This document shows positions 10,179-62,339 of a stretch of 64,000 bases of DNA, piece by piece; within the stretch, counting starts at the first letter, position 1, and the number at the start of each line of letters is the position of its first letter. The position numbers were made by a program, and so were the translations under genes. Source of the stretch: Leucoraja erinacea (lineage: Eukaryota); contig NC_073379.1 in the NCBI RefSeq assembly GCF_028641065.1, positions 21,948,001 to 22,012,000 on the forward strand. The letters run 5' to 3'. The notes beneath the pieces were generated by a model. The model was given only the letters and a program-made list of their open reading frames with translations, was not told the DNA's origin and made no database searches.

Positions 10179-10222
10179 ATCCTCATGATGATGTAAGTAG
10201 GCCAGGAACTCGAGAACATTGG

Positions 10223-12043: not shown

Positions 12044-12074
12044 GTGTAACCTTCCCCCTGTTAGTAAGGCACCC

Positions 12075-14531: not shown

Positions 14532-14721
14532 GTAAGGAAACAGTCAGTGTTGAGGAGTAAATGATAAAATCACATTGAACAACTGTGAGAAGAATGAGCT
14601 TTGATCTGTTTCCTCTTTGAGCATTTCACTCCATTCTCCCGCTGGGTCTCTTTCAAATCTTCACCCTTTCCTGGTTCTCCCCCTGCACCAATGAATAACA
14701 GTGACTTTTATCCATCTCTAG

Positions 14722-14950
14722 GCTTCAGCCACCATCTTGGAGCGATGGTGATAATGTATCTGGAGATACGTGTGTGTGCGGGAGTGAATAGACAGGTTGA
14801 TCATTTCAGCTGCCATTTGTTGAGTCTACTTTCTTGTGATTGGCTTCACTTTCTAGTGGTTAAACATAGATAAACATCATGTCTAATCTCCATTGCTGGT
14901 GTTGATGGGAGAATCATGGGACCTCCAGTGACATTGTTGTCAGCCTCTGG
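14722..14950 (+). pseudogene. Decayed C2+TM exon relic behind V2 (gene A intron)
   Basis: ctag|gcttcagccaccatcttggagc matches the C2 exon start. After an internal deletion it reads ISAAIC*VYFLVIGFTF*WLNI, colinear with the gene A TM; the donor GT is changed to AT. Confidence 0.8.
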
Positions 14951-17670: not shown

Positions 17671-17991
17671 GAAGTGCTTAGGGTGCAGAACCTAAGACCC
17701 GCCCCCCCCACCCACCTAATTCAGTTAACCGCGCCTTTAGTCACCCTCCATCCTCCTCTCCGGATCCTGGTCTTCAAGGTCAAGGTTCCATCTTGTCCAG
17801 ACTGAAGCTGAGATGTCTTTACTTGAGATTGGCCCTTATTAGAATAGTGCAGGTCAGGAACAGGTGGATCAGAGTGGAATGGGATGGAGAATCCAAGTCA
17901 CAAGTATGGATGAACTATTGATAAAGACTGTGTGGTTATTGTATTCAATTACTAAATCATATTCACACTTTAAAACTCTTCTCTCTGCAAG

Positions 17992-18354
17992 TTGATAATG
18001 ACAGAGCATCCATGGTGATTGGGAGGAAGGGTGCGACTGCCACACTGCCCTGCTCCTTCAGTCCCTCGAACAGGAATCCCAGCTCCATCACCATCAGCTG
18101 GATGAAGAGGAATCCACCAAAATGGTCTGTTGTCTTTCGTGACACTTCTCCCCGCCCAGCAGCAAATCACATTCCTGAAAATGTAAATAAAGGAAATCGA
18201 TTTGAGCTGGTGGGAAATCTGGAGCAGGGAGACGCCTCCATCAGAGTGAAGGGACTCAAACTGAATGACGCCAGTGATTACTCCTGTCACGTTTATGTCA
18301 GGAATTCAACGTTGACGACTGTGACTCAGGATGAGATGAAACTGCAGGTTGTGG
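17992..18354 (+). CDS. siglec15-like: Gene A exon V3a: V-set domain (YSCHV)
   Basis: Acceptor ctcttctctctgcAAG| and donor G|GTAAGG; 363 nt, phase 1-1; ATLPCSF..ISW..GDASIRVKGLKLNDASDYSC. Confidence 0.85.
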
Positions 18355-18994
18355 GTAAGGAAACGTATGTTATGCTGTAAACGATAATATCATATTGAAC
18401 AACCTTAGGAGGAATGAGCTCCCACTGACAGTGTAGACCAGCACAGGAACAGGCCCTTTGGCCCGCAATGTCTGTACCGGACATGATGCTACGTTAATCT
18501 CGTCTACCTGCAGGTGATACATTTCTTCCATTACCTGCATTTCAAAAAGTCTCTAAAACTCCACTATCGTAGCTGCCTCCACCACCCCTAACAGTATTTT
18601 CCTGGCACCCACCACCCTCTGTGTAAACAATAACTTCCCCCACATATCTCCTTTCATCTTTTCCCATCTGTCCTTGTCACAATGCTGTCTATTCGTTGAC
18701 ATTTCCGCCAGAGGCAAAAGGTTCTGACTCTCTCTCCTATCCATGTCTTTCATATTTTTATAAACTTTCAACAGTCCAGAGAAACAGTTCAAGTATGTCC
18801 GACCTTTTCTTATAACTAATGCCCGCTAATCCAGGCAGCAATCTGCTAAACCTCTTCTGAACCCTTTCCAAAGTCTCCTCATCCTTCCTGTAATGGGTGA
18901 AAACTGCACATAAAACTGAATGCAATAATCCCAGTGTCTTAACTAAAGTTGTATAGAGCTACAACATGACTTCCTGACTCTTGTATTCAGTAGA

Positions 18995-19170
18995 TAGACA
19001 CTAAAAGCTGGAGTAACTCACCGGGACATGTAGCATCTCTGGAGAGAAGGAATGGATGATGTTTTGGGTCGAGTATCATCTTCTCGACCTGAAACGTGAC
19101 CCATCCTTTCTCTCCAGAGATGCTGCCTGTCCCGCCGAGTTACTCCAGCTTTTTGTGTCCATCTTCGGTT
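18995..19170. repeat. Palindromic ~170-bp interspersed repeat (other copies near 20980, 35615, 36105, 54660, 59305)
   Basis: gacac..aaaagctggagtaactca..gcatctctggag is followed by its reverse complement ctccagagatgctg..gagttactccagctttttgtgtc. Confidence 0.75.
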
Positions 19171-19536
19171 TTAACCAGCATCTGCAGTTCCTTCCTACAC
19201 ATCTTGTATTCAGTACCTTGACCAATGAAAGCAAGAATACTGTACACGTTTTTAACGTGTTGCCATTTTCAGGGAGTTATGGAATTGGATCCCAATATTT
19301 TTCTGTACATCAGTGGTATTAAGGGTCTTGCCCTTGTATATTTTCCACTTGCATTCAATATCCCAAAGTCAACACTTCACACATGTTCGGATCAAATTCC
19401 ATCTGCCATTTCTCTGCCTATATCTGTATTAGATTAAAATTTGTAGTATCTTTCGACAGTTCTATGTTCATCTGTCTTCCTCATGATACTCTTGCATTTT
19501 CAATAAGCAACACTACAGCCCATGTGTGGGTTTGAT

Positions 19537-19656
19537 ATTTGAGCTGCCACTTATGTGGACTGCACTCTTACGATTGGCTTCACTTTCTCATGTTTGATCA
19601 GAGGTGAACGCCACTGTCTCATCTCCAATGTTGGTGTTGACGGGAGTCTTGTGGCA
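19537..19656 (+). pseudogene. Decayed TM exon relic behind V3a
   Basis: Reads I*AATYVDCTLTIGFTFSCLIR G|GTGAAC, codon-colinear with IRAAIYAVYFLIIGLTFCWLKR G|GTGAAC of the gene A TM. Confidence 0.8.
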
Positions 19657-19975
19657 AGCTATGTCAAGTTATTGCCCTAAGACCCCCCCCCCCCTTCCCA
19701 CCTAATTCAGTTAACCGCGCCTTTAGTCACGCTCCATCCTCCTCTCCGGTTCCTGGTCTTCAAGGTCAAGGTTCCATCTTGTCCAGACTGAAGCTGAGAT
19801 GTCTTTACTTGAGATTGGCCCTTATTAGAATAGTGCAGGTCAGGAACAGGTGGATCAGAGTGGAATGGGATGGAGAATCCAAGTCACATGTATGGATGAA
19901 CTATTGATAAAGACTGTGTGGTTATTGTATTCAATTACTAAATCATATTCACTTTAAAACTCTTCTCTCTGCAAG

Positions 19976-20338
19976 GTGATAATGACAGAGCATCCATGGT
20001 GATTGGGAGGAAGGGTGCGACTGCCACACTGCCCTGCTCCTTCAGTCCCTCGAACAGGAATCCCAGCTCCATCACCATCAGCTGGATGAAGGGGAATCCA
20101 CCAAAATGGTCTGTTGTCTTTCGTGACACTTCTCCCCGCCCAGCAGCAAATCACATTCCTGAAAATGTCAATATAGAAAATCGATATGAGCTGGTGGGAA
20201 ATCTGGAGCAGGGAGACGCCTCCATCAGAGTGAAGGGACTCAAACTGAATGACACCAGTGATTACTCCTGTCACGTTTATGTCAGGAATTCAACATTGAC
20301 GACTGTGACTCAAGATGAGATGAAACTGCAGGTTGTGG
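19976..20338 (+). CDS. siglec15-like: Gene A exon V3b: tandem duplicate of V3a
   Basis: Near-identical to V3a at an offset of 1984 bp; same splice sites; open frame. Confidence 0.85.
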
Positions 20339-22151
20339 GTAAGGAAACGTATGTTATGCTGTAAACGATAATATCATATTGAACAACCTTAGGAGGAATG
20401 AGCTCCCACTGACAGTGTAGACCAGCACAGGAACAGGCCCTTTGGCCCGCAATGTCTGTACCGAACATGATGCTACGTTAATCTCGTCTACCTGCAGGTG
20501 ATACATTTCTTCCATTACCTGCATTTCAAAAAGTCTCTAAAACTCCACTATCGTAGCTGCCTCCACCTCCCCTAACAGTATTTTCCTGGCACCCACCACC
20601 CTCTGTGTAAACAATAACTTTCCCCACATATCTCCTTTCATCTTTTCCCATGTGCCCTTGTCACAATGACGTCTATTCGTAGACATTTCCGCCGTAGGCA
20701 AAAGGTTCTGACTCTCTCTCCTATCCATGTCTTTCATATTTTTATAAACTTTCAACAGTCCAGAGAAACAGTTCAAGTATGTCCGACCTTTTCTTATAAC
20801 TATTACCCTCTAATCCAGGCAGCATTCTGCTAAACCTCTTCTGAACCCTTTCCAAAGTCTCCTCATCCTTCCTGTAATGGGTGAAAACTGCACATAAAAC
20901 TGAATGCAATAATCCCAGTGTCTTAACTAAAGTTGTATAGAGCTACAACATGACTTCCTGACTCTTGTATTCAGTAAATAGACACTAAAAGCTGGAGTAA
21001 CTCACCGGGACAGGTAGCATCTCTGGAGAGAAGGAATGGATGATGTTTCGGGTCAAGTATCTTCTTCTTGACCTGAAACATGACACATCCTTTCTCTCCA
21101 GAGATGCTGCCTGTCCCGCTGAGTTACTCCAGCTTTTTGTGTCCATCTTCGGTTTTAACCAGCATCTGCAGTTCCTTCCTACACATCTTGTATTCAGTAC
21201 CTTGACCAATGAAAGCAAGAAAACTGTAGACGTTTTTAATGTGTTGCCATTTTCAGGGAGTTATGGAATTGGATCCCAATATTTTTCTGTACATCAGTGG
21301 TATTAAGGGTCTTGCCCTTGTATATTTTCCACTTGCATTCAACCTCCCAAAGACAACACTTCACGTATGTTTGGATCAAACTCCATCTGCCATTTCTCTG
21401 CCTATATCTGTATTAGATTAATATTTGTAGTATCTTTCGACAGTTCTACGTTCATCTGCCTTCCTCATGATACTCTTGCATTTTCAAAGGCGCCCAAAAA
21501 TAAAATGTATTATTATTATTAGAACCATTATGTTCTGCACAGATATTGTGGATCTTTGTAACACAGACCATGTCACAGACACAGGGACTGGAGATCGGCC
21601 CAATGCATTGTAGGTTCCATTCCTTGCCCTGGGCTTCCCTTGCTCAGCACTGCCCCTAGTGGTTTGAAAACAGTGCTGATTCCAGCCAAGATACATGGAG
21701 CTCCCTGTGGCAGGATCAGAGATTCAGAACCACATTCACCAGCGGAACCTACAGTCACTGTGTCTGTGACATGGTCCGTGTTACAAAGATCCACAGTCGG
21801 CCCTGGGGGTATCATCCGTCTCTTTCATTCACATCGACTCCGGGATCCTGTATGTTCTCTCATTGAATATTACATAGAAATGTACAGCACAGGACCAGTC
21901 CGTTTGGCCCGCAATATCTGTGCAGAATATAATGGTTCTGTAAGTTAAACTAATATCATCTGCCGACACATGATCCATATCCCTCCATATCCCTGTAGAT
22001 CCATGTGCTTCTCAAAGGCACCGTCATATCTGCAAATATTTCACTGCAGTCTCCTAGATGTGTCCTTCCAATCCCCATTCAGATGGACTCTATCTGCACA
22101 CACCAACAGTGATTAATTCAATGAATTTAATACATTTCTTCATTCTCCTAG

Positions 22152-22523
22152 TCCCAGCCACCATCCTGGAGCTGTTCGTTGTGAGCGACAATGGAGCTGG
22201 AGAACGCACCCTCGTGTGCAGGGCTGAAGGGAAGCCCCCTGCAAACATCACATGGATCGGCCCAGGGAACAGTGCACTGCCCGTGAACATTAGTGAGATG
22301 ATAGTCACACATGATCCAGAGAAACTACTGACTGTAGGAGAGCTGCTTCACCCCAGGCTGCCAGGGAAATACACGTGTGTGGCTGTGAATGAACACCAGA
22401 TGGACACACGTGAGATTCGCCTTTTCGAGGATGGACGAAGTGATGAAGCGTTCGCCATTCGGGCTGCCATTTATGCCGTCTATTTTCTTATAATTGGCCT
22501 CACATTCTGCTGGTTGAAGAGAG
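22152..22523 (+). CDS. siglec15-like: Gene A exon C2-set + transmembrane (TM with Arg: AFAIRAAIYAVYFLIIGLTFCWLKR)
   Basis: Acceptor ttctccTAG|. LVCRAEGKPPANITWIGP..GKYTCVAVNEH resembles Siglec-15 C2 (LCTAEGEPPPALAWSGP..GRYTCTAANSL). Probable donor AG|GTGAAC; read-through would stop at 22624. Confidence 0.85.
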
Positions 22524-25500
22524 GTGAACGTCTCCATCTCAGTTCCATTGCCAGTGTCAACAGGAGGGATGCTGCACCTCCAGTGACAGTGTCAGGTTCT
22601 TTTGTTGTGAATCAGGCAGTGTAACTTCAGAGATAAACAATGCTACATTCCCGCAGCTATGACCGTGTGTCTGTGGGGTACATGCAGCCGTCCTCACATC
22701 AGTCTGACTCAGTGGCCCCTCCCTCAGTCGTGTATCCGATACTTTTGCTACTGCATTGCTGCTGATTCCTGCATCCACATAGAACTCAAATTTCACATGG
22801 CTCTTAGCTGTCTTCCTGCATCCTAATCCATGGCTTAATCTCTACATTATCTGACAGTGGCCTTAGCAGCTTTGAATCGTTTCATCAACTTCTTTGCTAA
22901 TTCTTTCCCCAAGGCAGAGCAAGAATAGCTTTTCCCTGATCCTCATTTCCCACCCACTAGTCTCTGCATTCAGTGGATCAACCTTTATAGCTTCTGTTAT
23001 CATCAGTGCTGGTACACCAACAGACACATCTTCCACCTGCCTACACTTTCAGCATCCTGAGGGGACCATTCCCTTTGCGACTCCATCATCTGCTCTTCCA
23101 TTCCATTCAACCATTTACTCGGAACAGTGCATGGTGTAGCTTTCCAGGCTAGACTGTGCAATCAACAATATCGGTGAGCTCACTTTCTCTGTCTGTGTCA
23201 AAGCTGGTCAGCTGTGTTGTAGATAATCCATCTGCATTATGAACTTGTTTTCCTCTCTCTACGGGCACGGCCTGATCTGTGGCCATCTCCTGTAGCTCTG
23301 GCTTGCTTTTGCAGTTTCTACATGCTCTCTTTCTAAATGCCCAGATAGCTTTGTCAATCATTTATTACTATGGAAACCAGGCCTTACCCTATGTCATTCC
23401 TTTTTCACTGTCCCTCTCTCATTATCTCACTCTTTCTGCGCCAACAATCTTTTTTATTTTCTCAGCTATTCAATCAGAAGCATGAACTCTTTCTTTCTGC
23501 ACAGATGCCGCCTGACCTGTTGAGTATCCTCTGCACTCTGGAGAAACATTCCCTTTTCCTTGCGGATCACAGGTGTCCCCTGCATTATGGAGTGTTACGT
23601 GTAAGCTGAAACAACATCATATTTTTTTGGCACTAATTCCAAGAGTGAACATTTTATTCTTCATCTCATATTTTTCACTGGTGATTTGTGAATTCTGCAA
23701 GGGAGAATTTCCATTACTGGAACAGCCGGAATATGGGCTTTACCCAAATTGGACTGGTGGTTGGGTTGAAGGATTGGGCACGTCTTGTAACATGAGATGA
23801 GATCTCCTGGTAAAGAGTAATGACTACATTGAAGAATCTGGAACCCAGTTCACTTGTGTCTGAAGCCCGTGTGCTAAACTTTAATTAAGGCATTTACAAT
23901 GGTGTGATGCAGTTGGTTAAAGTAGTTTCAAAATGATAGAAAAAATGCCTACAGTAATGTTGTGAAGTTTATTTAAAAGAGGATTGGGAGATTGTAAGAC
24001 TGAAGTAAACATCTTAAAAAATTATGAGGACAGGGTTGATGGAGAAAATTGGTAAATATAAAACAGATGAAAGGAGCTTCTGCAAGTAGATAAAAGGAAC
24101 AGTCTCCAAAGCAAACAATGGATGAAAGCACCAAAAGTACTGCAGAGACGCTGTCTGACGATGCAAAGATAGGTGGGTTAGCAAGTGATGAGGACACGAT
24201 GGGCCGGCACAGACATATAGATGGTTAAGGGAGTGGGGAAAAAATCAGCTGAATTAGTATGATGGGGGGGAATGTACCCCGTAATGTTTCTTGTGCAATA
24301 AAAACCAGCATTCCATTTGTCTTTACAACTGCTTACAATACCTGCACGCAAGTCTCGTGTTTCACGTGTACGTACCCAATGTTAGGGGAAAATGAAACGG
24401 CAAGTTATTATTTGATTGGTATGTGACTGCAATCCTTTTCTTAACTGTCTTCCACGTATCTTAACACCATCACCCTCATTCTACGGCCCACTGGTTCCTA
24501 TTAGATTTCATTCCCCCAATATCAGTGCTATTTTGCATACCTACCTAATTTTTGCAAACCTACCTGTGGTATTTGATTAAAGATCTTCTGAACATGCAGA
24601 TACACTGCACCCACTCACATTTTCCTACCAATTACATTCTTGGAAAAAAACTCCCAGCACAGCTGTCAACCATTGAATAAATAAAAATGCTTGCAGTTCT
24701 GATTTCCCCAGTACAGGAAGTGTGGGAAAGCTCTTTGGAGAGGGTGCAGAAAAGGTTTACCATGATTAGAAAGTATGAGCTATGAGGAGAGGCTGGACAT
24801 ACTTGGATTGTTTTCTCTGGAGAGTCGGAGATTGAGGGAAAATCTGATAGAAGTATAAAAAAACTATGAGGCAGAGATTAGGTAGACAGTCAAAACCTTT
24901 TCCCCAGGTAGAAATTACTAAGGCTAGAGGGTATAGTTTTGATACGAGGGGCAGGTTTTTTTTGACATGGGGTGATGGGGCCTGGAATGCCCTGACAGGT
25001 TTAGTGGAATCAGATACAATAGGGCATCTAAGAGGCAATTAGATAGACACATGGATATGCAGGGAAGGAGGGATGTGGATCACATGTAGGCAGAAGAGGT
25101 TAGTTTACCAGCCATCAAATTTGGTAGGGACATGATGGGCTGAAGGGCCTGTTCCTGTGCTGTACTGTTCTATGTTCAGAAAAATACAAATTGATTTTAT
25201 CTAATCCTTTGAAACTTTCAAAATGTGCTGTTATCACATGTATAGATTCCAGCAAAATAAATGCTAATTGTGTGAGGCTAACTGGTGTGTAGTTTGTTTA
25301 TTTCTCTCAAACATCATTTGTTGCATTTGACACTTGCCAACCTTCAGAAAACATTGCAGAAGATGTGAATTTGGGGCCATTACGTCCAGTGCATTTTGCG
25401 GTGACGGGAAAGTGGCAGTGGAAAGGGAGACGTGAGTGTGAAGGGGATGAGTGCACCTGGGTGCAGGGGCAAAGTGGTCTCTTGTCAAGGCAGAAATGGG

Positions 25501-33990: not shown

Positions 33991-34559
33991 CACACCCAGC
34001 AACCCAGGAAATTTGTTGGATTTTTTTGAAGAAGATGGGTTTATGGATCCACGGATTTCCCAGGGTCCACACACAAACTCACCCAACAACCTGTGTATCT
34101 TTGGGTGCAGTTTGACCTGGTTTCTTCCCATATCCCAGGGTATCACAGGTTAGGATTGGACTCTGGTCTCTGGAGCTGTTCAAAGTTTGTTCTACTCATG
34201 CAACATTAATTTGTCCCTCTAATAGGTGAGTGGTAAAAATGTAGATGTGGAGGTGAGGTGTTGGAGTTGATGCAGATGTGGGCAGATTAAAATGAGTCCC
34301 ACAGTTTTTTGTCTCCATTTTACTGATCCACTGTGAAATCTATTCAAAATATCCCTCTGGGAGTTCTGTGAATTCTTGCACCTTTTAGCTCAGGGACTCC
34401 AGTCACCCACAGACAGGAGACAACTGGAAGACAGTTGACTGGACCTTGATGCTGTTATGTGAGCAGCTACACCTTCTGTGGGACTTCTGGGACCTGGTTC
34501 CAATCTACAGTTTGTTTGTTGGGTGTAAATTTTGCAGCATAGGTTGGAGATCTGAACCA

Positions 34560-34974
34560 GAGGGTGACACCCTCATTGCATCAGCCAGTTCCACTCAGAT
34601 TCAACAAGGATGGAGACTGGATGACTGAACTGCAGTGTGTCAAAATGGACTTTGCCGTTTGATGCTGGCTGACAATTCTTGCAAAGTCTCTGGAGCCCTT
34701 TTACACTCTGTGTTAACTGCACAACTCAGAAAACGGCAGGAAGCAGCAAGGAGTCTTGGTCCCACCGAACCTAAAGGATTTGAAGGCTCAATAAGAGAAG
34801 TGAAAGTTTTTGATTTGCCTTTGCACTGCCTGTCTCCACTGATCGTACAAATATTTTAATACAGAGCAGCAGTTGGTTTTCTGGCTGCTTCACTGTGAGT
34901 GAAACATATATCTATGAGATAGACTGGGCTGTCCACGGCAATGGAGCAAAATCAGTCTTTTGATGCTATACTTA
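34560..34974 (+). pseudogene. Orphan promoter + degenerate leader exon of a third family member
   Basis: Aligns with 45733-46165. ..GCC TTT GCA CTG CCT GTC TCC ACT GAT C|GTACAA (ends 34844) has no ATG and an upstream in-frame TGA. Homology resumes at 37441-37485 after a transposon. No V exon seen before the gene B leader. Confidence 0.75.
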
Positions 34975-35923
34975 AACCGCTTTTTCATGGGGCGACTTGA
35001 CGCAAGAGTTAACCAAAGTTGAACATCGTGGGAACCTCTTGCGATAACCGTATGGCATTCGTGGACCACCGTGGCGCTAACGGCAGGTATTCGTGTAACT
35101 TAGTGACTCGGGAGAAAATTCAAACAAGCTTGAATTTCTCCAAGAGTGACTTGTACACTTGTGGTTGAACATTGCAACATTATGCGGACGTAGTTTATAT
35201 TGCAACATTATGTGCATTATCCGTACTGACTCTTACATGTACCGTGGGAACTGCTGCGAACGGTGAACCCGGAAGCTGGACAGAGGGGACAGAAGGTGAG
35301 TAAAAATTGTCTTCTGTGGGATTGAATTAAAAAAATAAAGATTTGAATCCGCATATGGCCATCAACTTAGTCATGAGTTATGTTAATGTGATTCAAGAAA
35401 ATAACTATAATCTTTAAAAGGGACTTTACTGAAAGGTCCCGCATTTTTATGGTCCGTGAGAAATTTTCCACATGTACTTCTTTGAGAGATACAGCTCGGA
35501 GTCCTCGCCGACCAGCGATCGATGCCTTTCCGAAGCAGGGTCCGGAACGCTACCAATCAATGTTCTCCAGATACCCGTGTAAAGGAGTGAACTGCACATG
35601 CTGGTTTAAAACGAAGACAGACACAAAAAGCTGGAGTAACTCAGCGAGTCAAGCAGCATCTCTGGAGAAAAATAGGTGATGTTTCGGGACGAGACACATC
35701 TTCAGACTCAATTCCGATTAGGATGTCTGAAGAAGGGTTCCGATTCGAATCGCCACCTATTCTTTTTCTCCAGAGATGCTGCCTGACCCGCTAACTTACT
35801 CCAGCTTTTTATGTTTTTCTTCCCAGATCTGACTTACCTGCTGAGTTACACCAACATTTTGTGTCCGTGTTCACTATGAACATTGAATTATTTAATTTTA
35901 GGTAACTTACACTCTCTCTCTCT

Positions 35924-41195: not shown

Positions 41196-41439
41196 ATATA
41201 ATACCATGTAATCCTGTGTTCAGGGAAGTGGAGAGAGGACAGCCAAGTGTCCGTGTTGCTGACTTGGCTGGGGCTTGTTTTCCTTGCCATCTCCGTCGGA
41301 CGATAATTGGTAAAGTTTTGAATTGGTCTACCAAACTGCTTTGTGATTTGTCTGTTTATTAAGACGTGAACCTGTTTGTTTAGTTATAAGTTAGCCTTTT
41401 TCAAGCAGATTTGATTCAGATTTGAATCAGGTTTTGCAA

Positions 41440-45986: not shown

Positions 45987-46035
45987 ATGCTGTTCATTTT
46001 GATTTGTGCCTTTGCACTGCCTGTCACCGCTAATC
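45987..46035 (+). CDS. siglec15-like: Gene B exon 1: signal peptide MLFILICAFALPVTAN
   Basis: ATG, hydrophobic core, phase-1 donor C|GTAAGT; paralogous to 1342-1390. Confidence 0.8.
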
Positions 46036-49890: not shown

Positions 49891-50426
49891 TGAGATGTGG
49901 GAAACAAACTAAGAAAGAGAAACCCATGCAGTAATAGATGGAAAGTGCAAACTGTACACAGCATCTGAGGTCAGGATTAAACTCTGAGTCCCTAGAGTTG
50001 TGAGTTAGCAGCTCCACTAGCTGCTCCACTGTGCCAGCTGTGTATATCCTCGATTAGTGGTCAGGTACTGCCTTAGTGGGTTCTTGCTGTGCCAACACTT
50101 CAAACCTGTGAAGCTCTGTGGACCACCCCCTGTCTGTGAGGGAAGTGATGTAAATGCAAGGTCTCTCCCGGACAGCAGCTTATAACTGTGAGAGATGTGG
50201 CTCCTGTGAAGAGCCAGCACAGCCCGGAGGAGGGGAACCACTGTTAGTGTCACAGTCCCACCTCCCCATTTCTCACAGCTCACCACATGGTGACGGTGAC
50301 AAACAGCACAGCAGCATCACAGTTCAACTGTCTTCCACAAGGGCAGGGACCCAGGGTGGGCGCAGCCTCCTACAGTGACTGTGGCCCTCAGCTCAGTCTT
50401 AACGTTACATCTCTGTGTCTTCACAG

Positions 50427-50807
50427 GCTTCAGTATCAATGGTTGGACCATGGAGATACCGGACAAGGTGATGGGGAGGGAGGGGAAGCTCGTGGTTCTG
50501 TACTGCAAGTTTGCTCACCCTAACCATCAATACAAAGACAACATCACCATCATCTGGAGAGAGGAGAAGACCCAGAATATCTTTTTCAAATACACAAATT
50601 ATCCATCAAGCAACAATTATAAAAATGAGATTGTGGATAATGTAGGAGCTCGCTACAGACCAATGGGGGACCCTCGGAAGAACGATGCTTCCATAATCAT
50701 TAATCAGCTGGGAACGACGGATACAAACAAGATCCTCAACTGTCGTGTTGAGCTCACGGGAGAAGCAGGAAAGTTTGGAAGGTCACATGGGCGAATCACA
50801 ATATCAG
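50427..50807 (+). CDS. siglec15-like: Gene B exon V1: Siglec-15-like V-set with the essential Arg (NCRVE)
   Basis: Same splice sites as gene A V1; 381 nt open frame WTMEIPDKV..YCKFAHP..GDPRKNDAS..CRVELTG. Confidence 0.9.
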
Positions 50808-53800
50808 GTGAGGAATGATTGTGCTGCAAACAAACAATTTGTCTTCCTTCCTGCTTCCTGTGATTCCAATGTTACTGGCATGGCTGGCAATTGTTCAAGC
50901 TGCTGACTTGTTGGCTACATCACTGGGAGATCATGCCCTGGTTTGACTGTCTAAAATACATCACGTTGCACTAAACTGAATTTAAATCTATTAACCAACC
51001 CTCAACCCACTTGCCCCGCTGATCACGATCCTGCTGTGGTTTTGATAACCATCTTCACTCATAATCCTCATTTCTGCCTTGACCATGATGTCCCGTCACT
51101 GTGGAATGGGGTGATGTCATTGCCACATCTGGCCTGCTGTTATAGTCACATATTATATCTCCTCCAGTTAAGTTTCAGATATTGGTATTGGTTTATTATT
51201 GTCTATTGCACTGAGATATAGTGATATTTTTCCGAGTGCCATCCAGACAAATCATCCCATTGAGGCACTAGAAACTGGAGATGCTGGAACCATGAGCAAT
51301 ACACAAAGTGCTGAAGACACAGTGGGTCAAGCAGCATTGGTGGAGGAAATGGACAGGCAATTATCCGGGTCGGTTCCCTTCAAACTGATGGAGTAGTAGG
51401 GAGAAAGATGGGAACGGGGCAAAGCTTGCCCAATGAGAGGTGGATGGAGGTGGGAGAGGGGGGGGGGGGCACGGGGGAGATGCTTATCAGATGGGTGGAG
51501 ACAGTGATAATGGCGAGTGGTGAAAAGTGGTAAAAGGTGTCAGACAAGGAAACAAAATGTAAAGGCGGAGGCAAATGGATGGAATGGGCCAGGGGAGATG
51601 GGCAGGTGAAAGACGTGATAGAAGGAACTATGGGATTCGAGGATGGGAGATGAATACGGGAGATGAAAGGAGCAGTGTGAAAGGGATAATGGGAGCAATG
51701 TGTGCACAGTGGGCTGGTGGAGGGGGGGGGAGGGGAGGTATTACTTGAACTTTGAGAGTTCAGTGTTCATACGGTTGGGTTATAAGTTACACAAGCTGAC
51801 CATGAGGTGCTGTTCTTCCTGTTTGAGTGTGTTCTCACACTGATAATACACAAGGCCAGTGACAGTCAGGTCAGTGTGGGAACAGAAAGAGGAGTTAAAA
51901 TGCGTCGGAACCAGGAGCTCCAGCAGGCCTTGGCAGACTGAACACAAGTATTCATCATATTGGGGACACAGAATGCAATAGATGAGGTTGGAAGAATCAT
52001 ACCTTAGATGTGTGCATCAGGCACTGTAAAAGAGAAAATAAGCAAAGTGAAGAATGTAGTATGACAGCTACAGTGAAAGTGCTACTAAAGAGTAGTGCAA
52101 TCGTTTAACGTGGTAGATTGGAAGATCGCGTAATTCAACCCTAGCATTTGTGAGGTCCATTCAAGACTCTAACAATAGGTAAGAAGTTGTTCTTCCATCT
52201 GGTGGTACCTACTTTCAAGTTTTTGTATCTTCTGGGTGTGAGAATGTCAGGGTATTAGTTGTCCTTGATAATGTGGTTGCTTTTTCGAGGCAGCATTAAG
52301 TGTAGAATGGTGAAACAGAGAATCAAAATTGACCCTGGCAGATTGAAGAGACAGCATTTGTTCAGGCAGTGTTAGTGAACAGGAAGGGGTAGTCCCTGGT
52401 TTTTAAAACAATGCTTAGACTATTACGTGAAATGGGAGAAGGGGTCAGAACACAGATGCTCGAACCCATTCTCATCCATAAAATCATGGCTAATTCTGGA
52501 CCTTGTTCATTCGCTGAGAGATCCCCCAGAGTGATCTCCATGAGACCCAGATAAACTGTGGACCTTTGGTTTGAACTTACTCAGCTACGTTTTACCCACA
52601 GCTTCTGCATAATGTGGATTGTTGATTGTAATCATGTATAGTCTTTTCGTTGACTGGTTAGCATGCAATAAAAGCTTTTCACTGTACCTTGGTGCAGGTG
52701 ACAATAAACTAAACTCTGGGATGGAAAATTCAGTAGGTTCACAAACATTATTGCAGGGAATTTCTTGACCTCAGTCCTGAATGTCTGACTTCTTTTTCCT
52801 TGACATGTGGTTTTTGAATCATAAGCAGGAAGAAATAAACTTTCCACAAGTATTTGTGAAATCCATCTATTTCCCAGAGCCCTCTGTCCATTGACATCCA
52901 TCAGTCCCAGTCCCCCTATTCTTTCCACACAATCCCCCAAATTATTCCAATCAGGTGTGTTTAATAGTCATATGCACTGGGATTAGAACAACACAATTTT
53001 TCATTGCTGCAACTTTGCAGGCACATTGATGCAACATAATAATACATTTACAACAAACAGTAATACAATATCAGTTATACATGGTAATAGCATTTGATTA
53101 ACATTTGAAGTATTTAAAGCAACCTTATACAAAGGGCATAATAGTTTGGTGCAAGAGCCTGATGATGCCACAATGAACCTAAACACAACCAAACTTCAGC
53201 ACTGATCTGTTATGGACAAATAACGGGATTGCTGTATCACAGTTCGGGAGGGAGATCTTTAGTGAAATCAAAACAACCTGTTAAATGGCAAGATTGTCTT
53301 CTTGAACCTGGAGGTAAAGGTTCACATTTCCTGAACCTTCTACCTGGCAGTAGCAACAAGAGGAGATCAAGCCGTGTGATACTGTTATATTGGCTGCCCT
53401 CTATATTTACTCTCATTCACTTACCAATCAAGTGACCACAACAGCCAATCACCAGGGCAATCCTGTCCCCAACCGATCATAGATTCCTCCACATTCCCAC
53501 TTCTCTGCAACATAAAAGACATTTGTTTTATTGTAACTTTTCCCAGTTCTGATCATCAACCTGACAATCATTTGTTTCTCTCCTGATTTTTTCTATGTCA
53601 ATGTAGCTATCGTAATCTTGTACTTCATACTTTCATCATTGAGCCCAGCGTCTCGCACTTCACTAACCATTGCCTCAATGTGTCACATTTGTTTTAGTTA
53701 ACTGTGTCTCAGAAGGAGTTTCCACATGTTCCTTGGCATCCTTGAGCATTGTTCTGTTTAACTATCTTATCTCTCATTTCTGTGTAGGTATTATCACTCG

Positions 53801-54932
53801 GTGCGTGTCTCTGTTAATTTTTATCTCACACACCTTCTCCACCTCTTCATATTCCATCTGCAATCTTCTTATAATTCGATGGAAAATGGCCATGTAGTAG
53901 AACATGCAGTAGAAAATGTAGTAGAGGTATACTACATCGACTGGATCCTTCCTTATCAATTCTGTTAGATATATTGTCCACCCTAACCCTAAACTCCACT
54001 TAAATTGTCAACAGAACTTCCCCTTCATCAAGAATTAAAACATAAATTGCTGTAAAATTAATCAGGTCTGAATGCAAGTCAACTGGAGGGGCGACAATAT
54101 CCATGTAGGACGTTGTGTTGCTGCTACTCAGGAGGGTTTAATCTAGTTTGTCAGAAGGTTGGGAACTGGAGCAGGTGGAGGAATTGAATGGGATGTAGAC
54201 ATCAGTTTAAGGCTGATCAGAAGGGCTGGCGGGGCCAGGTTAATGAACGCAGTGGAACTGATGGGCTGAAGTGTGTTTATTTCAATTCTATGTTTATTAT
54301 GTGTAAGGCAGATGAATATAGAGTTTGGATTAATGCATGGAACTATGATGTTGTGGCCATTAGAGTTTTGGTTGAGCGAGGGGCGAGACTGACACCATAA
54401 TGTTCCAGGGTTTTAGACATGATTTAGTAGCATTGTAGGTTATGTAAAAAAACAACCAGGCCACCTGCAATTACTCTATTCAATTTGATTTGAGAATTCT
54501 GCATATTATTTATAAAGTAGATGAATTACAATTACAGTTACATTTCACCGCTCTAGAGCAGCGCAGGAAGGTCAGGGACAGATGGGTCAGAGTGGGAGTG
54601 GGATGGAGAAACATGGTCACAGATGTGTAGGAAGGAACTGCAGATGCTGATTTATACCGAAGATAGACACAAAATGCTGGAGTAACACAACGTGCCAGGC
54701 AGCATCTATGGAGAAATGGAATAGATTCTACTTCAGGTCTGAAGAAGGCTTCCATTCACAAACATTACCTACTACTTTTCTCCAGAGATGCCGCATGATC
54801 TGCTGAGTTACTCCAGCATTTTGTGTCTATCAACATGGTCACAGACACAGGTAAAGTATTGATAAAAATAAATGTGGTTAATGCATCCGACCAATGAATA
54901 ATGTCCATATTTTAAATCTTTCTCTATCCGAG

Positions 54933-55301
54933 GTGATGTCAACGCATCTATGGTGATCGGGAAGAGAGGACGTGGTGCCACACTGAACTGCAACTTCAAA
55001 CACTCGAGAGCAAATAGCAGGGTGATCACTATCCTCTGGATGAAGGGGACTCCATGGGAAGAGTCCGTTGTCTTTAATCATACCCGCTCCTACGGCACAA
55101 GCGGTCCCGGCACTGACAATGTAAATAGAGGAGGTCGATATGAGCTGGTGGGAAACGTAGACAAGGGAGACGCCTCCATCAGAGTGAGGGGACTCATGTT
55201 GAATGACACCAACAACTATTTCTGTCATGTTTGGATCTTTAAATCCTCTAAGAAGGAAAATATTCAGGTGACTCAGGATGAAACGGGACTACAGGTTTTG
55301 G
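54933..55301 (+). CDS. siglec15-like: Gene B exon V2 (FCHVW)
   Basis: Acceptor tctttctctatccGAG| and donor G|GTAAGG; 369 nt, phase 1-1, open. Confidence 0.8.
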
Positions 55302-55489
55302 GTAAGGAAACAGTCAGTGTTGAGAAGTAAATGATAAAATCACATTGAACAACTGTGAGAAGAATGAGCTTTGTTCTGTTTCCTCTCTGAATATTTCACT
55401 CCATTCTCCCGCTGGGTCTCTTTCAAATCTTCACCCTTCCTGGTTCTCCCCTGCACCAATGAATAACAGTGACTTTTATCCCTCTCTAG

Positions 55490-55718
55490 GCTTCAGCCAC
55501 CATCTTGGAGCGATGGTGATAATGTATCTGGAGATACGTGTGTGTGCGGGAGAGAATGGACAGGTTGATCATTTCAGCTGCCATTTGTTGAGTCTACTTT
55601 CTTGTGATTGGCTTCACTTTCTAGTGATTAAACATAGATAAACATCATGTCTAATCTCCATTGCTGGTGTTGATGGGATAATCATGGGACCTCCAGTGAC
55701 ATTGTTGTCAGCCTCTGG
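55490..55718 (+). pseudogene. Decayed C2+TM exon relic behind V2 (gene B intron)
   Basis: Near-identical to 14722-14950; A-type TM sequence with stops. Confidence 0.8.
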
Positions 55719-57969
55719 TTCCGGTAATGGGGGAGGGGAGAAGAGAGAGTAACTCGGGTGTGAGTGATCCTTCATTATGTTGGCTGCTTTCCCAAGGAAT
55801 AAATGCAGTTGATGGGCGGGGGAACGAGGGAAAACCTTTTATTCATTCTACATGGTTAATCCTGAGCTTTCTGGTGCTTGTAATCTTAATCATCCATGCA
55901 ATTCCCCCTCTGACTATTTTTTGTGACTTCCTTATAACCCGTCTAATGCAATTTGAAGAACAGGGCTCTCTGCATCATTGCAGACTCCATTGAATTCAAG
56001 AATTTTGGATGATACTTTTTCTCTCTTTTATCAGAACTAACCAGTTCTACTGAAGATAAGCAAAATGGAATATTAATCAGTTATTCTCTGAACAATTATT
56101 GTAACTTAAAATAAGTTAGCTGAAGTTGCAGAGGTTGTATAGAGGGGTGGATTGGAAATAGGAAATATTTCTGAAAGGGTGAGTCTAGGTTTGCTGTTGA
56201 TGAAATTATCTGGTTGATAAATTAAGGAAGGAAACTGGAGACAGAGAACACAAACAAAGATAGAAACAGAGCTGCAAAACGTACGTCAGCTGCAAGAAAC
56301 ACGCTGCAGATCAGGCAGTGTCAGTGGACAGAGGAGAACTGAGTCAGTATTGCAGATGGATAACCTACTGCAAAACTTCTGATACAAACAGTGAGAAAGT
56401 TACCAGAAATTATTGTATTCAATGTTGACTCAATGGTTCAATGGGTCAACCGTGAATAGAACAATTTCTGGTGACTTGCTCGCTGTTTGTATCAGAACTG
56501 GCGAGTTCTACAGCATCTGCGATACTGACTCAGTTCTCCTGAAGAAGAATCACGACCCGAAACGTCACCGATTCATTCTATCCAGAGATGCTGCCAGCCC
56601 GCTGAATTACTCCAGCATTTTGTGTCTATTTTCGGTTCAATGGTTTCTTTATTATCACCTGTAGCAAGTACAGTGAAATACTTTTTTGCATACAGATCAG
56701 TAAGAATATCACCGTACATAAATAAGCACAATCCCCCCGGTTAGTACATCATGTACAGAAGAACCCACCGAGTCTGGGCAACAGTTGCCATTTTGCACCA
56801 TTTTACAGACCTCGATGCAGTGGCCACAGAGGCCCCATTGCAGCCGCCGCCTCCATTCCAGTTGTCCTGGAATGTTGACCCTCACCCTGCACAGCCCTAT
56901 TCAGCCCTTCTTCCCCAGGGGTGGTGTGCGGTGGGTGGGGGGGGCTCCTCCCGCAGATGAGATTAGGGAGCGGAAGTTAAAAACTCCTCCACCCCGCCTG
57001 ATTCCGTTAACCAGGCATTTTCAGGATGGCTGCCAGTTACTAGCAGAGTTCCGCAGGGCTCGGTGCTGGGGCCGCTGCTCTTCACGTTGTATATTAATGA
57101 TTTGGATGAGGGGATCGAAGACTTTGTGGCCAAGTTTGCGAATTATACGAAAATAGGTGGATGGGCAGGTAGTGCAGAGAAAGCAGGGTCTCTGCAGAAG
57201 AACTTGGATAGGTTGGGAGAGTGGGCAGAGAAGTGGCAGATGGAAAGGTGTGGAAAAGTGTGGAGTCATGTATTTTGGTAATAGGATTAAAGGCGTTGGT
57301 TACTTTTTAAATGTCGAGAGAATCCAGAAATCGGAGGTGCAAGGTGACTTGAGAATGCTGGTGCAGGATTCACAAAAAGTTAATCTGCAAGTCAAATCAG
57401 TTATAAAGAAAGCAAACGCAATGCTAGCATTTATTTTGAGAGGGTTTATATGCAAAAGTAGGGATGTAAAGCTGAGAATCTTTCAGGCGCTGGTCAGGCC
57501 ACATTTGGAATATTGTGAGCAATTTTAGGCACCATATCTGAGGAAGGATGTGCTGGCTCTGGAGAGGGTCCAAAGGAGGTTCACAAGAATGATCCCAGGA
57601 ATGAGTAGGATAACATCAGATGAATATTTGACGGCACTGGGCCTATGTTTGCTGCAGTTTAGAAGAATGAGGGAGGACGACATTGAAACAGACAGAATAG
57701 TGAAAGGCTTGGATGTGGAGAGGATGCTTCCACTAGTGGGAGAGTTGAAGACGAGAGGTTTTAGCCTCAGAATTAAAGGGACGTTCTTTTAGGAAGGAGA
57801 TGAGGATGAATTTCTTTGGCAGGAGGGTGATGAATCTATGGAATTCATTGCCACAGATGGCTGTGGAGGCAAAGTCAGTGGATATATTTAAGGCAGAGGT
57901 AAGTTGATTCCTGATTAGTGCAGATGTCAGAGGTAATGAGAAGTGCTTCGGGTGCAGAACCTAAGACCG

Positions 57970-58019
<50 letters not shown>
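57970..58019. repeat. Poly-C tract (shorter in the gene A copies)
   Basis: About 50 C; the homologous site marks the V3 duplication boundary in A. Confidence 0.95.
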
Positions 58020-58021
<2 letters not shown>

Positions 58022-58302
58022 CCCCACCTAATCAGTTAACCGCGCCTTTAGTCACCCTCCATCCTCCTCTCCGGTTCCTGGTCTTCAAGGTCAAGGCTCC
58101 ATCCTGGCCAGACTGAAGCTGAGATGTCATTACTTGAGATTGGCCCTTATTAGAATAGTGCAGGTCAGGAACAGGTGGATCAGAGTGGAATGGGATGGAG
58201 AATCCAAGTCACAAGTATGGATGAACTATTGATAAAGACTGTGTGGTTATTGTATTCAATTACTAAATCATATTCACACTTTAAAACTCTTCTCTCTGCA
58301 AG

Positions 58303-58665
58303 TTGATAATGACAGAGCATCCATGGTGATTGGGAGGAAGGGTGCGACTGCCACACTGCCCTGCTCCTTCAGTCCCTCGAACAGGAATCCCAGCTCCATC
58401 ACCATCAGCTGGATGAAGGGGAATCCACCAAAATGGTCTGTTGTCTTTCGTGACACTTCTCCCCCCCCAGCAGCAAATAACATTCCGAAAAATGTAAATA
58501 AAGGAGATCGATATGATCTGGTGGGAAATGTGGAGCAGGGAGACGCCTCCATCAGAGTGAAGGGACTCAAACTGGACGACGCCAGTGATTACACCTGTCA
58601 CGTTTATGTCAGGTATTCAGCGTTGACGACTGTGACTCAAGATGAGATGAAACTGCAGGTTGTGG
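58303..58665 (+). CDS. siglec15-like: Gene B exon V3 (YTCHV)
   Basis: Paralogue of V3a/V3b; AAG acceptor and G|GTAAGG donor; 363 nt. Confidence 0.85.
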
Positions 58666-59847
58666 GTAAGGAAACGTATGTTATGCTGTAAACGATAATA
58701 TCATATTGCACAACCTTAAGAGGAATGAGCTCCCAGTGACAGTGTAGACCAGCACAGGAACAGGCCCTTTGGCCCGCAATGTCTGTACCGAACATGATGC
58801 TACGTTAATCTCGTCTACCTGCAGGTGATACATTTCTTCCATTACCTGCATTTCAAAAAGTCTCTAAAACTCCACTATCGTAGCTGCCTCCACCACCCCT
58901 AACAGTATTTTCCTGGCACCCACCACCCTCTGTGTAAACAATAACTTTCCCCACATATCTCCTTTCATCTTTTCCCATCTGTCCTTGTCACAATACCGTC
59001 TATTCGTTGACATTTCCGCCGTAGGCAAAAGGTTCTGACTCTCTCTCCTATCCATGTCTTTCATATTTTTATAAACTTTCAACAGTCCAGAGAAACAGTT
59101 CAAGTATGTCCGACCTTTTCTTATAACTATTACCCTCTAATCCAGGCAGCATTCTGCTAAACCTCTTCTGAACCCTTTCCAAAGTCTCCTCATCCTTCCT
59201 GTAATGGGTGAAAACTGCACATAAAACTGAATGCAATAATCCCAGTGTCGTAACTAAAGTTGTATAGAGCTACAACATGACTTCCTGACTCTTGTATTCA
59301 GTAGATAGACACTAAAAGCTGGAGTAACTCACCGGGACAGGTAGCATCTCTGGAGAGAAGGAATGGATGATGTTTCGGGTCAAGTATCTTCTTCTTGACC
59401 TGAAACGTGACACATCCTTTCTCTCCAGAGATGCTGCCTGTCCCGCTGAGTTACTCCAGCTTTTTGTGTCCATCTTCGGTTTTAACCAGCATCTGCAGTT
59501 CCTTCCTACACATCTTGTATTCAGTACCTTGACCAATGAAAGCAAGAATACTGTACACGTTTTTAACGTGTTGCCATTTTCAAGGAGTTATGGAATTGGA
59601 TCCCAATATTTTTCTGTACATCAGTGGTATTAAGGGACTTGCCCTTGTATATTTTCCACTTGCATTCAACCTCCCAAAGACAACACTTCACATATGTTTG
59701 GATCAAACTCCATCTGCCATTTCTCTGCCTATATCTGTATTAGATCAACATTTGTAGTATCTTTCGACAGTTCTACGTTCATCTGCCTTCCTCATGATAC
59801 TCTTGCATTGTCAATAAGCAACACTACAGCCCATGTGTGGGTTTGAT

Positions 59848-59995
59848 ATTTGAGCTGCCACTTATGTGGACTGCACTCTTACGATTGGCTTCACTTTCTC
59901 ATGTTTGAACAGAGGTGAACGCCACTGTCTCATCTCCAATGTTAGTGTTGACGGGAGACTTGTGGCATCTCCAGTGATATTGTCATCAGCCTCTA
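59848..59995 (+). pseudogene. Decayed TM exon relic behind V3 (gene B intron)
   Basis: I*AATYVDCTLTIGFTFSCLNRGERH..VSVDGR..ASPVILS aligns to gene A IRAAIYAVYFLIIGLTFCWLKRGERL..ASVNRR..APPVTVS. Confidence 0.8.
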
Positions 59996-60066
59996 GCTAT
60001 GGTGGTTTGTGTCAGGTAATATTGACTTTTGAGGCAGTTCTGGCCAGTTCTTATACTTAACAGTAA

Positions 60067-60729
60067 AGGGCTTGTCCCACTTAGGTGATTTTTTAGGCGA
60101 CTGCCGGTGACTGTCATGGTCGTAGCAGGTTGCCGAAAAACCGGTGACTGGACCCCCCCCACGACAATGTCTACAACAACCTACCACCTAGTCGACGTTA
60201 AGCCATGACAACCGGCGACTCAATCGTCACGACTTAGGACGTCCACCTACGACCACACCTAGACAACCCTACGACCACACAGGTGACAACCTACGATAAC
60301 CAGTCAACCGACCTCCACCCGCGACAAGCTACGACAAGCTACCACCCTGTCGGTGACAATTGAAGACTTCTCTTGACACGGTAGCTGTCGCCGGTTGACG
60401 CAGGTTGACGTAGGTAGTCCCCAAATGAATTCATCGAAGTCAGCACCAGCGACAACATACATCATCCTGGCAACAACCTATGTTATCCTGGCGACAACTT
60501 ACGACAGCACCTACGTCAGGAGAAGACAAGCTACGACAAGCCCAAGATCGCTGAGTGTCGTCAAAAAGATTTGAACATTTCAAAATCCTGCGGCGACCAG
60601 AAAAACACTACGGATCTTTGGGCGACTTAAGGAGACGACTCACGACCCTACATGTGACACCCGGCAACCGTGTGGTGACCGCCTAGTCGCCCGTTGTCCC
60701 CTAATAATCGCGTAAGTTGGACAGGCCCT
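60067..60729. mobile_element. PIF/Harbinger-type MITE
   Basis: TIR agggcttgtcccactta / taagttggacaggccct, TAA TSD (60064-60066, 60730-60732), internal ctacgac-like repeats. Confidence 0.85.
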
Positions 60730-60957
60730 TAAGCAAGTTATTGAAATTGTTGTATTAAATGTTAACACAAAAGCTTCATGCTGCCCAGACAGAAGATGAG
60801 GTTGCTTGAGATTGGGCCTCGTTAGAACAATGCAGGAGGTCTGAGACAGACAGATCAGAGCGGGAGTGGGATGGGGAATCAATGTCACAGGCATGGATGA
60901 TGTATTTTTATAAACCATGTGGAATAGATTGTTAAATACAACTTTTCTCTATACAAG

Positions 60958-61320
60958 ATGGAAAGAAGAACACATCCATGGTGATTGGGAAGAGAAGAGA
61001 TTCAGCCACACTGCCCTGCTCCTTCAGCCCCTTGAACAAGAATCCCAGCCCCATCACTGTCCGCTGGATGAAGGGGAATCCACGGGAAGAGTCCACAGTC
61101 TTTAATCACACCCACCCCCACTCTGTGAACCCTCCCTCCACTGTCACTGTAAAGGGAGGAGGTCGATATGAGCTGGTGGGAAAACTAGACCAGGGAGACG
61201 CCTCTATCAGAGTGAAGGAACTCAGACTGGACGACAGCAGTGACTATTTCTGTTACGTTTGGGTCAGGAATTCCACACAGGAGACGGTGACTCAGGATGA
61301 GACTAAACTGGAGGTTGTGG
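60958..61320 (+). CDS. siglec15-like: Gene B exon V4 (YFCYV); no counterpart in gene A
   Basis: Acceptor cttttctctatacAAG| and donor G|GTAAGG; 363 nt; SATLPCSF..VRW..GDASIRVKELRLDDSSDYFC. Confidence 0.85.
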
Positions 61321-61970
61321 GTAAGGAAATATCTGTCTGTGTTGTGCTGTGAACGATAAAATCACATTAACAACTGTAAGAGGACATGAGATCCACTGAC
61401 AGCTGGAGCCGAGATCGGCCCAATCCATTGTAGGTTCCATTCCTTGCACTGGGCTTCCCTTGCTCAGCACTGCCCCTAGTGGTTGGAAAACAGTGCTGAT
61501 TCCAGCCAGGTTGCACGGAGCTCCCTGCAGCAGGATCAGAGATTCAGAACCACATTCACCAGCTGAACCTCCAGTCCCTGTGTCTGTGACATGGTCTGTG
61601 TTACAAAGATCCACAGACGGCCCTGGGGGTATCATCCGTCTCTTTCATTCACATCGACTCCGGTAACCTGTATGTTCTCTCACTGAATATTACATAGAAC
61701 AGCACAGCACAGGACCAGGCCCTTTGGCCCGCAATATCTGTGCAGAATATAATGGTTCTGTAAGTTAAACTAATATCATCTGCTGACACATGATCCATAT
61801 CCCTCCATTCCCTGTAGATCCATGTGCTTCTCAAAGACACCGTCATATCTGCAAATATTTCACTGCAGTCTCCTAGATGTGTCCTTCCAATCCCCATTCA
61901 GATGGAGTTTATCCGCACACACCAACAGTGATTAATTCAATTAATTTAATACATTTCTTCCTTCTCCAAG

Positions 61971-62339
61971 TCCCAGCCACCATCCTGGAGCTGTCCGTTG
62001 TGAGTGACAATGTAACTGGAGAACGCACCCTTGTGTGCAGGGCTGAAGGGAAGCCCCCTGCAAACATCACATGGATCGGCCCAGGGAACAGCTCACTGCC
62101 CGTGAACATTAGTGAGATGACAGTCACACATGATCCAGAGAAACTACTGACTGTGGGAGAGCTGCTTCACCTCACGCTGCCAGGGAAATACACGTGTGTG
62201 GCTGAGAATGAACACCAGATGGACACGCGTGAGATCCGCCTATTCGAGGTTGGGGGAGTGTTGCACCCAGGCGTCTACATTGGATTACCCATATTGGCTA
62301 TTGGCCTGATGGTATTTGCTCTCATCTCTTTGAAAAAAT
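61971..62339 (+). CDS. siglec15-like: Gene B exon C2-set + neutral TM (GVYIGLPILAIGLMVFALISLKK); cytoplasmic exons not found in the window
   Basis: C2 is near-identical to gene A up to 62249, then the stalk/TM is unrelated; strong donor T|GTGAGT. Confidence 0.85.

Follow-up and report, generated by a model that had tools for sequence, protein, structure and literature searches.

Intronic remnants of arginine-type transmembrane exons suggest capture of V domains by an inhibitory-type Siglec-15-related receptor gene in the skate Leucoraja erinacea

Two tandem genes for Siglec-15-related receptors, here called A and B, share a colinear block in a 64,000-nt stretch of the Leucoraja erinacea genome (NCBI RefSeq assembly GCF_028641065.1, contig NC_073379.1, 21948001-22012000), which we refer to as the window. 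All positions are those of the window, the exons and relics lie on its forward strand, and sites beyond it are given on G000:C3. Gene B runs leader, V0, V1, relic 1, V2, relic 2, V3, a C2 exon ending in a neutral transmembrane (TM) segment, and tail exons past the window end; gene A runs leader, V0, V1 (acceptor deleted), relic 1, V2, relic 2, V2', and a C2 exon with an arginine-bearing TM. The two relics are dead exons of the arginine type, and they point to gene B as a likely chimera that captured its V1 and V2 modules from Arg-TM (activating-type) units of the same tandem cluster. The proposed history as a whole, with capture of Arg-TM units by B and later exchange between A and B, seems reasonably probable to us.

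Gene B opens with a leader exon (45987-46035, ATG to GT donor) that differs from the A leader at 9 of 49 positions and lies outside the homogenised tract. Its V0 exon (50427-50807), delimited by splice sites, encodes an N-terminal Siglec-15-like V-set domain that matches PDB 7zoz (E 2.6e-12) with the CRVE motif aligned and its arginine kept. V1 (54933-55301) and V2 (58303-58665) have no Siglec Arg, and V3 (60958-61320) is of a conserved V type common to the Lys-TM paralogue C, with 89% DNA identity. The C2 and neutral TM exon (61971-62339), 100% identical to the database protein Leucoraja erinacea LOC129695366 (P0002), encodes a helix at about 62270-62326 in which a Gly codon (GGA, 62282-62284) aligns with the Arg of gene A. 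Past the 3' end of the window come the tyrosine-tail exons (G000:C3 ~22015190-22029275, L005-L006), which are tandemly duplicated, resulting in eight tyrosine-motif pieces, with two copies lacking the AG acceptor of the first. Three of the eight fit the immunoreceptor tyrosine-based inhibitory motif (ITIM) consensus quoted in PMC7226832, two of them without the first copy's AG, and gene B likely inhibits via motifs resembling ITIMs or immunoreceptor tyrosine-based switch motifs. Contigs of relatives, some from runs guessed to be RNA and giving neither strand nor expression level, bear on splicing: in one from a guessed-RNA run of relative X1, V3 is followed directly by C2 and a TM of B type, and in another V2 passes into a further V with no relic 2 sequence between.

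In gene A, a leader exon (1342-1390) is followed by an intact V0 (6613-6996), placed by splice sites and comparison with B and with CRVE kept, and by a V1 (14174-14531) that has an open frame and has lost its acceptor through a deletion of ~1016 bp relative to B. Behind the A copy of relic 1 (14722-14980), the segment 17992-20338 holds V2 (17992-18354), a truncated copy of relic 2 (~19522-19656) and a duplicate, V2' (19976-20338), after which V3 has been deleted. The last exon (22152-22624) carries C2, the Arg TM (CGG, 22460-22462), and a short read-through tail without Tyr that stops at 22622. In the best 19-residue helix the Arg comes fourth, placing it at the N-terminal end of the TM. This TM region is conserved in DNA contigs from two relatives; the guessed-RNA contigs do not reach it. 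The outer-end Arg and short tail predict that gene A likely activates via an FcRgamma/CD3zeta-type adaptor. At the junction of the V3 deletion (21488-21592), we observed two inverted templated inserts derived from the downstream intron, one of which matches B's present intron at 46/46 positions and A's own at 42/44. A 4-kb insertion in the V0 intron (8905-12961), not in B and bounded by a terminal 97-nt inverted repeat, is probably a mobile element.

Relic 1 (55490 to ~55750) follows V1 in gene B as an Arg-type C2-TM-tail exon that has lost most of its C2 part, is broken by stops and a frameshift, and reads TCA where the Arg codon stood (55574-55576); its AG acceptor is kept and its GT donor lost. 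Relic 2 (59833-60018) follows V2 as an Arg-type TM and tail with the C2 part gone and TGA at the Arg codon (59851-59853). Scored as z against 300 dinucleotide shuffles, relics 1 and 2 matched the A TM (z 12.3 and 13.5) and the sequence 3' of the A GT donor (z 4.8 and 6.8), with 0/300 shuffles as high, but did not match B's own TM (z -0.9 and -0.4; 257/300 and 192/300 shuffles as high). A control TM, from the neighbouring gene U, reached z 3.7 against relic 1 owing to composition, far under A's score. The functional TMs of A and B, and the DNA 3' of their donors, had no DNA-level similarity (z 0.3 and -0.9), and the relic copies of A and B differ at just 2/139 positions for relic 1 and 7/133 for relic 2. 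The initial annotation of this DNA had reported that the relics in B match the gene A TM and that TGA stands where A has CGG in relic 2 (its V3 relic); both observations hold, and the TCA of relic 1 and the presence of both relics in A are additions to them. Sawfish model P0046 also matches relic 2 (E 1.3e-9) over residues 124-186 of 187, with the tail matched to its end. No B-type tail relics were found behind gene A. We had considered the relics as a single shared, already-decayed copy, given 21 sites common to both against A, and dropped this candidate as many of those sites are intact-gene states in sawfish. Splicing of V1 into the kept acceptor of relic 1 (55490-55642) would give 50 codons in a shifted frame and then a stop, with AATAAA at 55798, ~50 nt beyond the relic; a secreted V0-V1 form is possible.

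The window alone leaves the TGA codon ambiguous, one step from CGA and also from B's aligned GGA. In the A/B introns, 27 of 140 CpG pairs differ by a transition, and CpG C>T is ~13 times faster than G>T by a rough estimate with a rough correction for gains, so CGA>TGA is favoured, which agrees with the earlier reading of the TGA as CpG decay of CGA. In sawfish, model P0046 carries this Arg in an intact TM followed by a read-through tail, which supports the initial proposal that the Arg TM is ancestral, and the relics nest in the clade of skate A and sawfish Arg TMs (support 99/97 in one TM tree and 97/91 in another). Since skate A and sawfish both carry it and the relics nest with them, Arg is the parsimonious ancestral state of both relics. 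Of the 7 Rhinoraja models in this class, 6 carry the Arg and one has Trp instead; sawfish carries the Arg as well, and a read-through short tail in the TM exon is predicted in 5 of the 7 and in sawfish. The idea that the Arg TM is skate-specific was overturned by P0046.

The neutral TM of gene B belongs to a different and widespread type. It matches neutral TMs in sawfish (z 4.5) and in Rhinoraja (z 5.1), both scored with a core-only shuffle and both followed by tail exons matching B's, and orthologues of the B-type TM with its tyrosine tail were detected in sawfish, stingrays, manta, and sharks. A clade of skate A and B TMs was rejected (approximately unbiased test, p-AU 0.013), as was grouping of the relics with B-type TMs in two TM trees (p-AU 0.0067 and 0.0024). 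We therefore give very little credence to an origin of the B TM from an A-type TM by fast divergence, with no chimerism needed: the two TMs do have similar length, the same LK[KR] end, a phase-1 donor, and a common distant ancestor, but the orthologues elsewhere, the rejected clade and the lack of DNA similarity past the donors (z -0.9) speak against it. Homologous downstream introns behind a fast-diverged A-type TM, the pattern named in advance as contrary to chimerism, were thus not what we found. At greater depth the two classes are related. The Arg TM aligns without internal gaps to inhibitory-type TMs of sharks, the Arg falling opposite Trp or Gly; the Rhinoraja A Arg TM scored z 5.1 against the inhibitory-type TM of Heterodontus and 3.5 against that of Heptranchias, and the Arg TM scored 2.9 against sawfish. 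The Arg TM thus likely descended from an ancestral inhibitory TM, making the deep direction inhibitory to activating, and the initial claim that B's TM is different from A's stands in that it is not a diverged A TM, but not in full, as the two share a distant ancestor. Stingray and manta models P0021 and P0036 have a second Arg TM, two positions off, that groups with B-type TMs of their own species; this is likely an independent inhibitory-to-activating switch.

The V1 and V2 classes were confined to three skates among 42 V rows, and B-type models of sawfish, Hemitrygon, and Mobula have a single V after V0. In B, a dead exon of Arg type stands behind both V1 and V2. Most simply, V-C2-TM(Arg) units were placed ahead of B's V3-C2-TM and their internal TM exons decayed. 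The initial annotation had moved the entire multi-V ectodomain from an activating-type donor onto B. This part of its account fits V1 and V2, which are relic-marked and likely came from Arg-TM units, but not V0, V3, and C2, which give no direction signal. Gene A's own lineage also loses ground as the donor, as the relics are nearer the sawfish TM and tail (25/41 and 27/44 identical) than those of skate A (20/41 and 22/44). Both skate A rows depart from sawfish at 13 sites; among these, relic 2 agrees with sawfish at 8 and with skate at 2, and relic 1 agrees with sawfish at 5 and with skate at 3. The best tree joins the relics with sawfish (81.5/74), with 5 of 7 topologies staying in the set, including the relics as sister to skate A (p-AU 0.117). 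These patterns suggest that the modules came either from a sister Arg lineage or from a very early split from A's line. The donor would belong to the Arg-TM class but need not be gene A itself; it may be a sister lineage of which the sawfish gene is today's representative.

The near-identity of A and B has another source. The tract common to both (50085-62253 in B and 6270-22434 in A, forward strand) is 95-99% identical, with introns 1.4-5.3% and exons 4-11% apart, and just outside it on the 5' side the leader, leader flank, and an old short interspersed nuclear element are 18-23% apart. On the 3' side, the switch falls on the C2/TM junction, and a relative's contig switches at the identical base. 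In line with the earlier suggestion of separate trees for the gene parts, the TM splits by type and the C2 by lineage, with both TM-type clades rejected for C2 (p 6e-10 and 5e-7). In C2, B groups with the Lys-type gene C in two sharks and sawfish, and with Arg-type genes in skates, and the V1 exons of skate A and B group together against Amblyraja V1 (92/88). The near-identity of A and B is the product of later, repeated exchange, and because the relics are common to both genes, they cannot orient these recent events. Gene A has since lost V3 together with the acceptor of V1, and its V2 has been duplicated. Amblyraja was unusable for orienting the latest exchange, with a V0 tree that was unresolved and models P0007 and P0004 that lack a TM type (their AmA/AmB labels follow domain layout). 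Three marks of paired receptors under concerted evolution are present at this locus: an ectodomain (C2) tree by lineage set against a TM tree that sorts by signalling type, neighbouring genes whose ectodomain DNA is nearly identical, and one partner (B) with a neutral TM and ITIM tail beside another (A) with a charged TM and a short Tyr-less tail. Separately, we observed that the V0 exons (6613-6996 and 50427-50807) differ at 42/380 sites, compared with 61/2247 in flanking introns (Fisher p 2e-11). V0, likely the ligand-binding exon, may either escape homogenisation or be diversifying; positive selection on V0 was not significant (dN 0.134, dS 0.086, p 0.17).

We propose that the ancestral shark and ray gene would have had the layout leader-V0-V-C2-neutral TM-tyrosine tail. 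Before the skate/sawfish split, a duplicate may have acquired Arg in place of the Gly/Trp close to the outer end of its TM and shed the spliced tail, and is predicted to couple to an FcRgamma/CD3zeta-type adaptor. On the skate stem, V-C2-TM(Arg) units may then have been stacked in tandem and joined to the C2-TM of B by unequal crossover or long-tract conversion, and death of the internal C2-TM exons would have led to V-to-V splicing. Subsequently, A and B would have repeatedly swapped DNA from intron 1 to the C2/TM junction, in a direction that is not readable, an exchange that could keep ligand binding matched and signalling opposite. More tentatively, and with somewhat less than even confidence, we suggest that the inhibitory receptor took in two units of an Arg-TM lineage that is dead in skates and living in sawfish, the TMs of those units being left behind as datable fossils, and that, within a so far undescribed paired family of cartilaginous fish, the homogenising partner of B switched from a Lys-TM gene in sharks and sawfish to an Arg-TM gene in skates and to a separately evolved Arg-TM gene in stingrays and manta.

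Several points weigh against this history and the roles it assigns. Heptranchias B carries its own near-identical V duplicate, so V gain is possible without such capture. No leader or V0 remnants were detected between the relics and the next V (8/8 tests not significant), so intragenic duplication fits better than whole-gene fusion, and an in-situ origin is possible. The Arg TM scored z ~0 against two stingray rows and against skate B, and skate A against B directly scored -0.2 in a harsher test, so homology of the A and B TMs comes through the shark and sawfish rows. An Asn three residues before the Arg is absent, with Phe there in A and Leu in Rhinoraja and sawfish, and the activating and inhibitory roles of A and B are read from motifs. 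Outgroup rows are predicted protein models throughout, gene order and relic presence were seen in this one genome, and the TM trees were built on 25-45 columns.

Other histories can be set against these data. A narrower form of the capture we favour, closest to the initial annotation, would have V-C2-TM triplicated in A's lineage and the multi-V ectodomain copied once onto B; we regard it as possible but doubtful. In its favour, both genes hold both relics within a single colinear stretch that runs between intron 1 and the C2/TM junction, the modules have no leader or V0 remnants between them, and a sister position of the relics to skate A is retained (p-AU 0.117). Against this, the relics carry more sawfish than skate states and the best tree joins them to sawfish, gene A as it stands lacks V3 and the acceptor of V1 and so could not have supplied the ectodomain that B now has, and exchange recurred after the Amblyraja split. 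It is also conceivable, though we think unlikely, that nothing passed between genes at first and that the Arg-TM modules were alternative last exons in the B locus, giving one gene activating and inhibitory isoforms and later dying, with gene A a 5' partial duplicate that got its relics from B. Descent of the Arg TM from a B-type TM would suit such an origin, as would the structural intactness of B and the acceptor of relic 1, with its AATAAA ~50 nt behind and a weak colinear match to the A 3' flank. Many Rhinoraja Arg-type models also begin at V without V0, but these may be incomplete annotation, the Arg-TM units of sawfish and Rhinoraja are annotated as separate genes, and more steps are needed to place an Arg TM behind a V3-type intron in A. 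An artefact, whether from mis-joined haplotypes or from a chimeric assembly, might explain more than 10 kb of high A/B identity, yet it merits hardly any credence: large indels separate A from B, V0 is 11% apart, a relative's contig has V3-C2-neutral TM with the switch at the identical base, and another relative's DNA contig covers C2 through the Arg TM to the 3' flank (22387-23374).

Capture of activating-type units by B followed by A/B exchange has clear parallels among mammalian Siglecs. SIGLEC11/SIGLEC16 and SIGLEC5/SIGLEC14 are likewise adjacent inhibitory and activating Siglec-type genes with ectodomains grouping by species and exchange ending before the TM; conversion from the activating side to the inhibitory gene is documented there for SIGLEC16P to SIGLEC11, and SIGLEC14/5 is a fusion allele, activating 5' and inhibitory 3' (PMC5701461, PMC4042635, PMC13358205). 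The skate tract is longer (~12-16 kb versus ~2 kb), and the locus differs further in that exchange likely changed domain number, adding two V domains to B, in the dead activating TM exons within introns of the inhibitory gene, and in a family that is Siglec-15-related, not CD33-related. The mechanism class (SIGLEC16P to SIGLEC11, KIR recombination) is already known, and the present case is a further instance of concerted evolution between paired receptors, comparable to SIGLEC16P to SIGLEC11 but unusual for the fossil record in its introns. Paired-receptor exchange wipes its own history, and its direction is seldom readable; here, dead TM exons carried along with captured V exons can be dated against a living outgroup. 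Activating copies, usually taken as short-lived derivatives, likely fed new domains back to a long-lived inhibitory gene. In cartilaginous fish, the locus may also serve as a natural series in which a single ectodomain has switched between adaptors of Lys and Arg type, as far as adaptor function follows from the motifs. Our literature search, which left subscription journals outside, found no paper on this skate family or on TM relics as direction markers.

Activating receptors elsewhere share parts of this pattern. For KIR and Ly49, the inhibitory form is ancestral and activating forms arise recurrently by gain of TM charge and loss of the tail (PMC2213150). The skate family is similar in having a likely ancestral inhibitory and a likely derived activating form, with a separate B-type Arg TM in stingray and manta models, but differs in that its Arg-TM class is old (skate and sawfish) and domains likely flowed back to the inhibitory gene. 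Gene A resembles LILRA2, PIR-A, NKp46, GPVI, and Xenopus XFL TM1, which are FcRgamma-coupled (PMC2413239), in its Arg near the outer TM end and the short tail predicted in the TM exon. It differs from FcRgamma NxxR receptors in lacking the Asn, and the likeness is likely convergent, with the A TM derived from its own family's inhibitory TM.

The V domains place both genes near Siglec-15. PDB 7zoz is the best solved-structure match of V0 and V3, the V-set and C2 layout is common to both, and the sialic-acid-binding Arg of the CRVE motif is present in V0 of A and B (B aligned to 7zoz) and absent in V1-V3. A TM lysine of the DAP12/DAP10 type is absent in A and B and present in paralogue C. Siglec-15 (PMC7226832) differs from A and B, which lack the TM lysine and have up to four V domains and, in B, a tyrosine tail. 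Judging by these features, A and B are relatives of Siglec-15 and not Siglec-15 proper. Skate modular domain immune-type receptors (MDIR) have CD300/TREM/pIgR-like V domains. Siglec-15 was the best PDB match of our V domains, and CD300, TREM, and pIgR were named in none of the 34 and 6 matches, with MDIR sequences lying outside the comparison.

Searches of the skate's own genome found no family members besides A, B, C, and U, although the DNA search was insensitive and recovered 1 of 4 relic copies. A short hydrophobic leader-like stretch with a stop (41227-41305) ends in a GT donor and has no match in the rest of the fetched DNA. Gene U lies 25 kb upstream (G000:C3 ~21920970-21923900, L011) and encodes a V with FCRVE, a C2, and a neutral TM; its C2-TM exon is 38% identical to B's, and it is a more canonical Siglec-like member. 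Gene C lies 5.9 Mb away (G000:C3 ~16006770-16013540, L002-L003) and has a V0-V-C2 layout with a Lys TM that is kept from sharks to rays and a V0 without the Siglec Arg; outside skates, the B C2 is homogenised with that of gene C. Between A and B, a third, decayed leader region (34557-34975) is 75% identical to the B leader, with no ATG or GT donor seen, and we read it as the remains of an array member since lost. Judging by their models, Amblyraja and Rhinoraja may have larger arrays.

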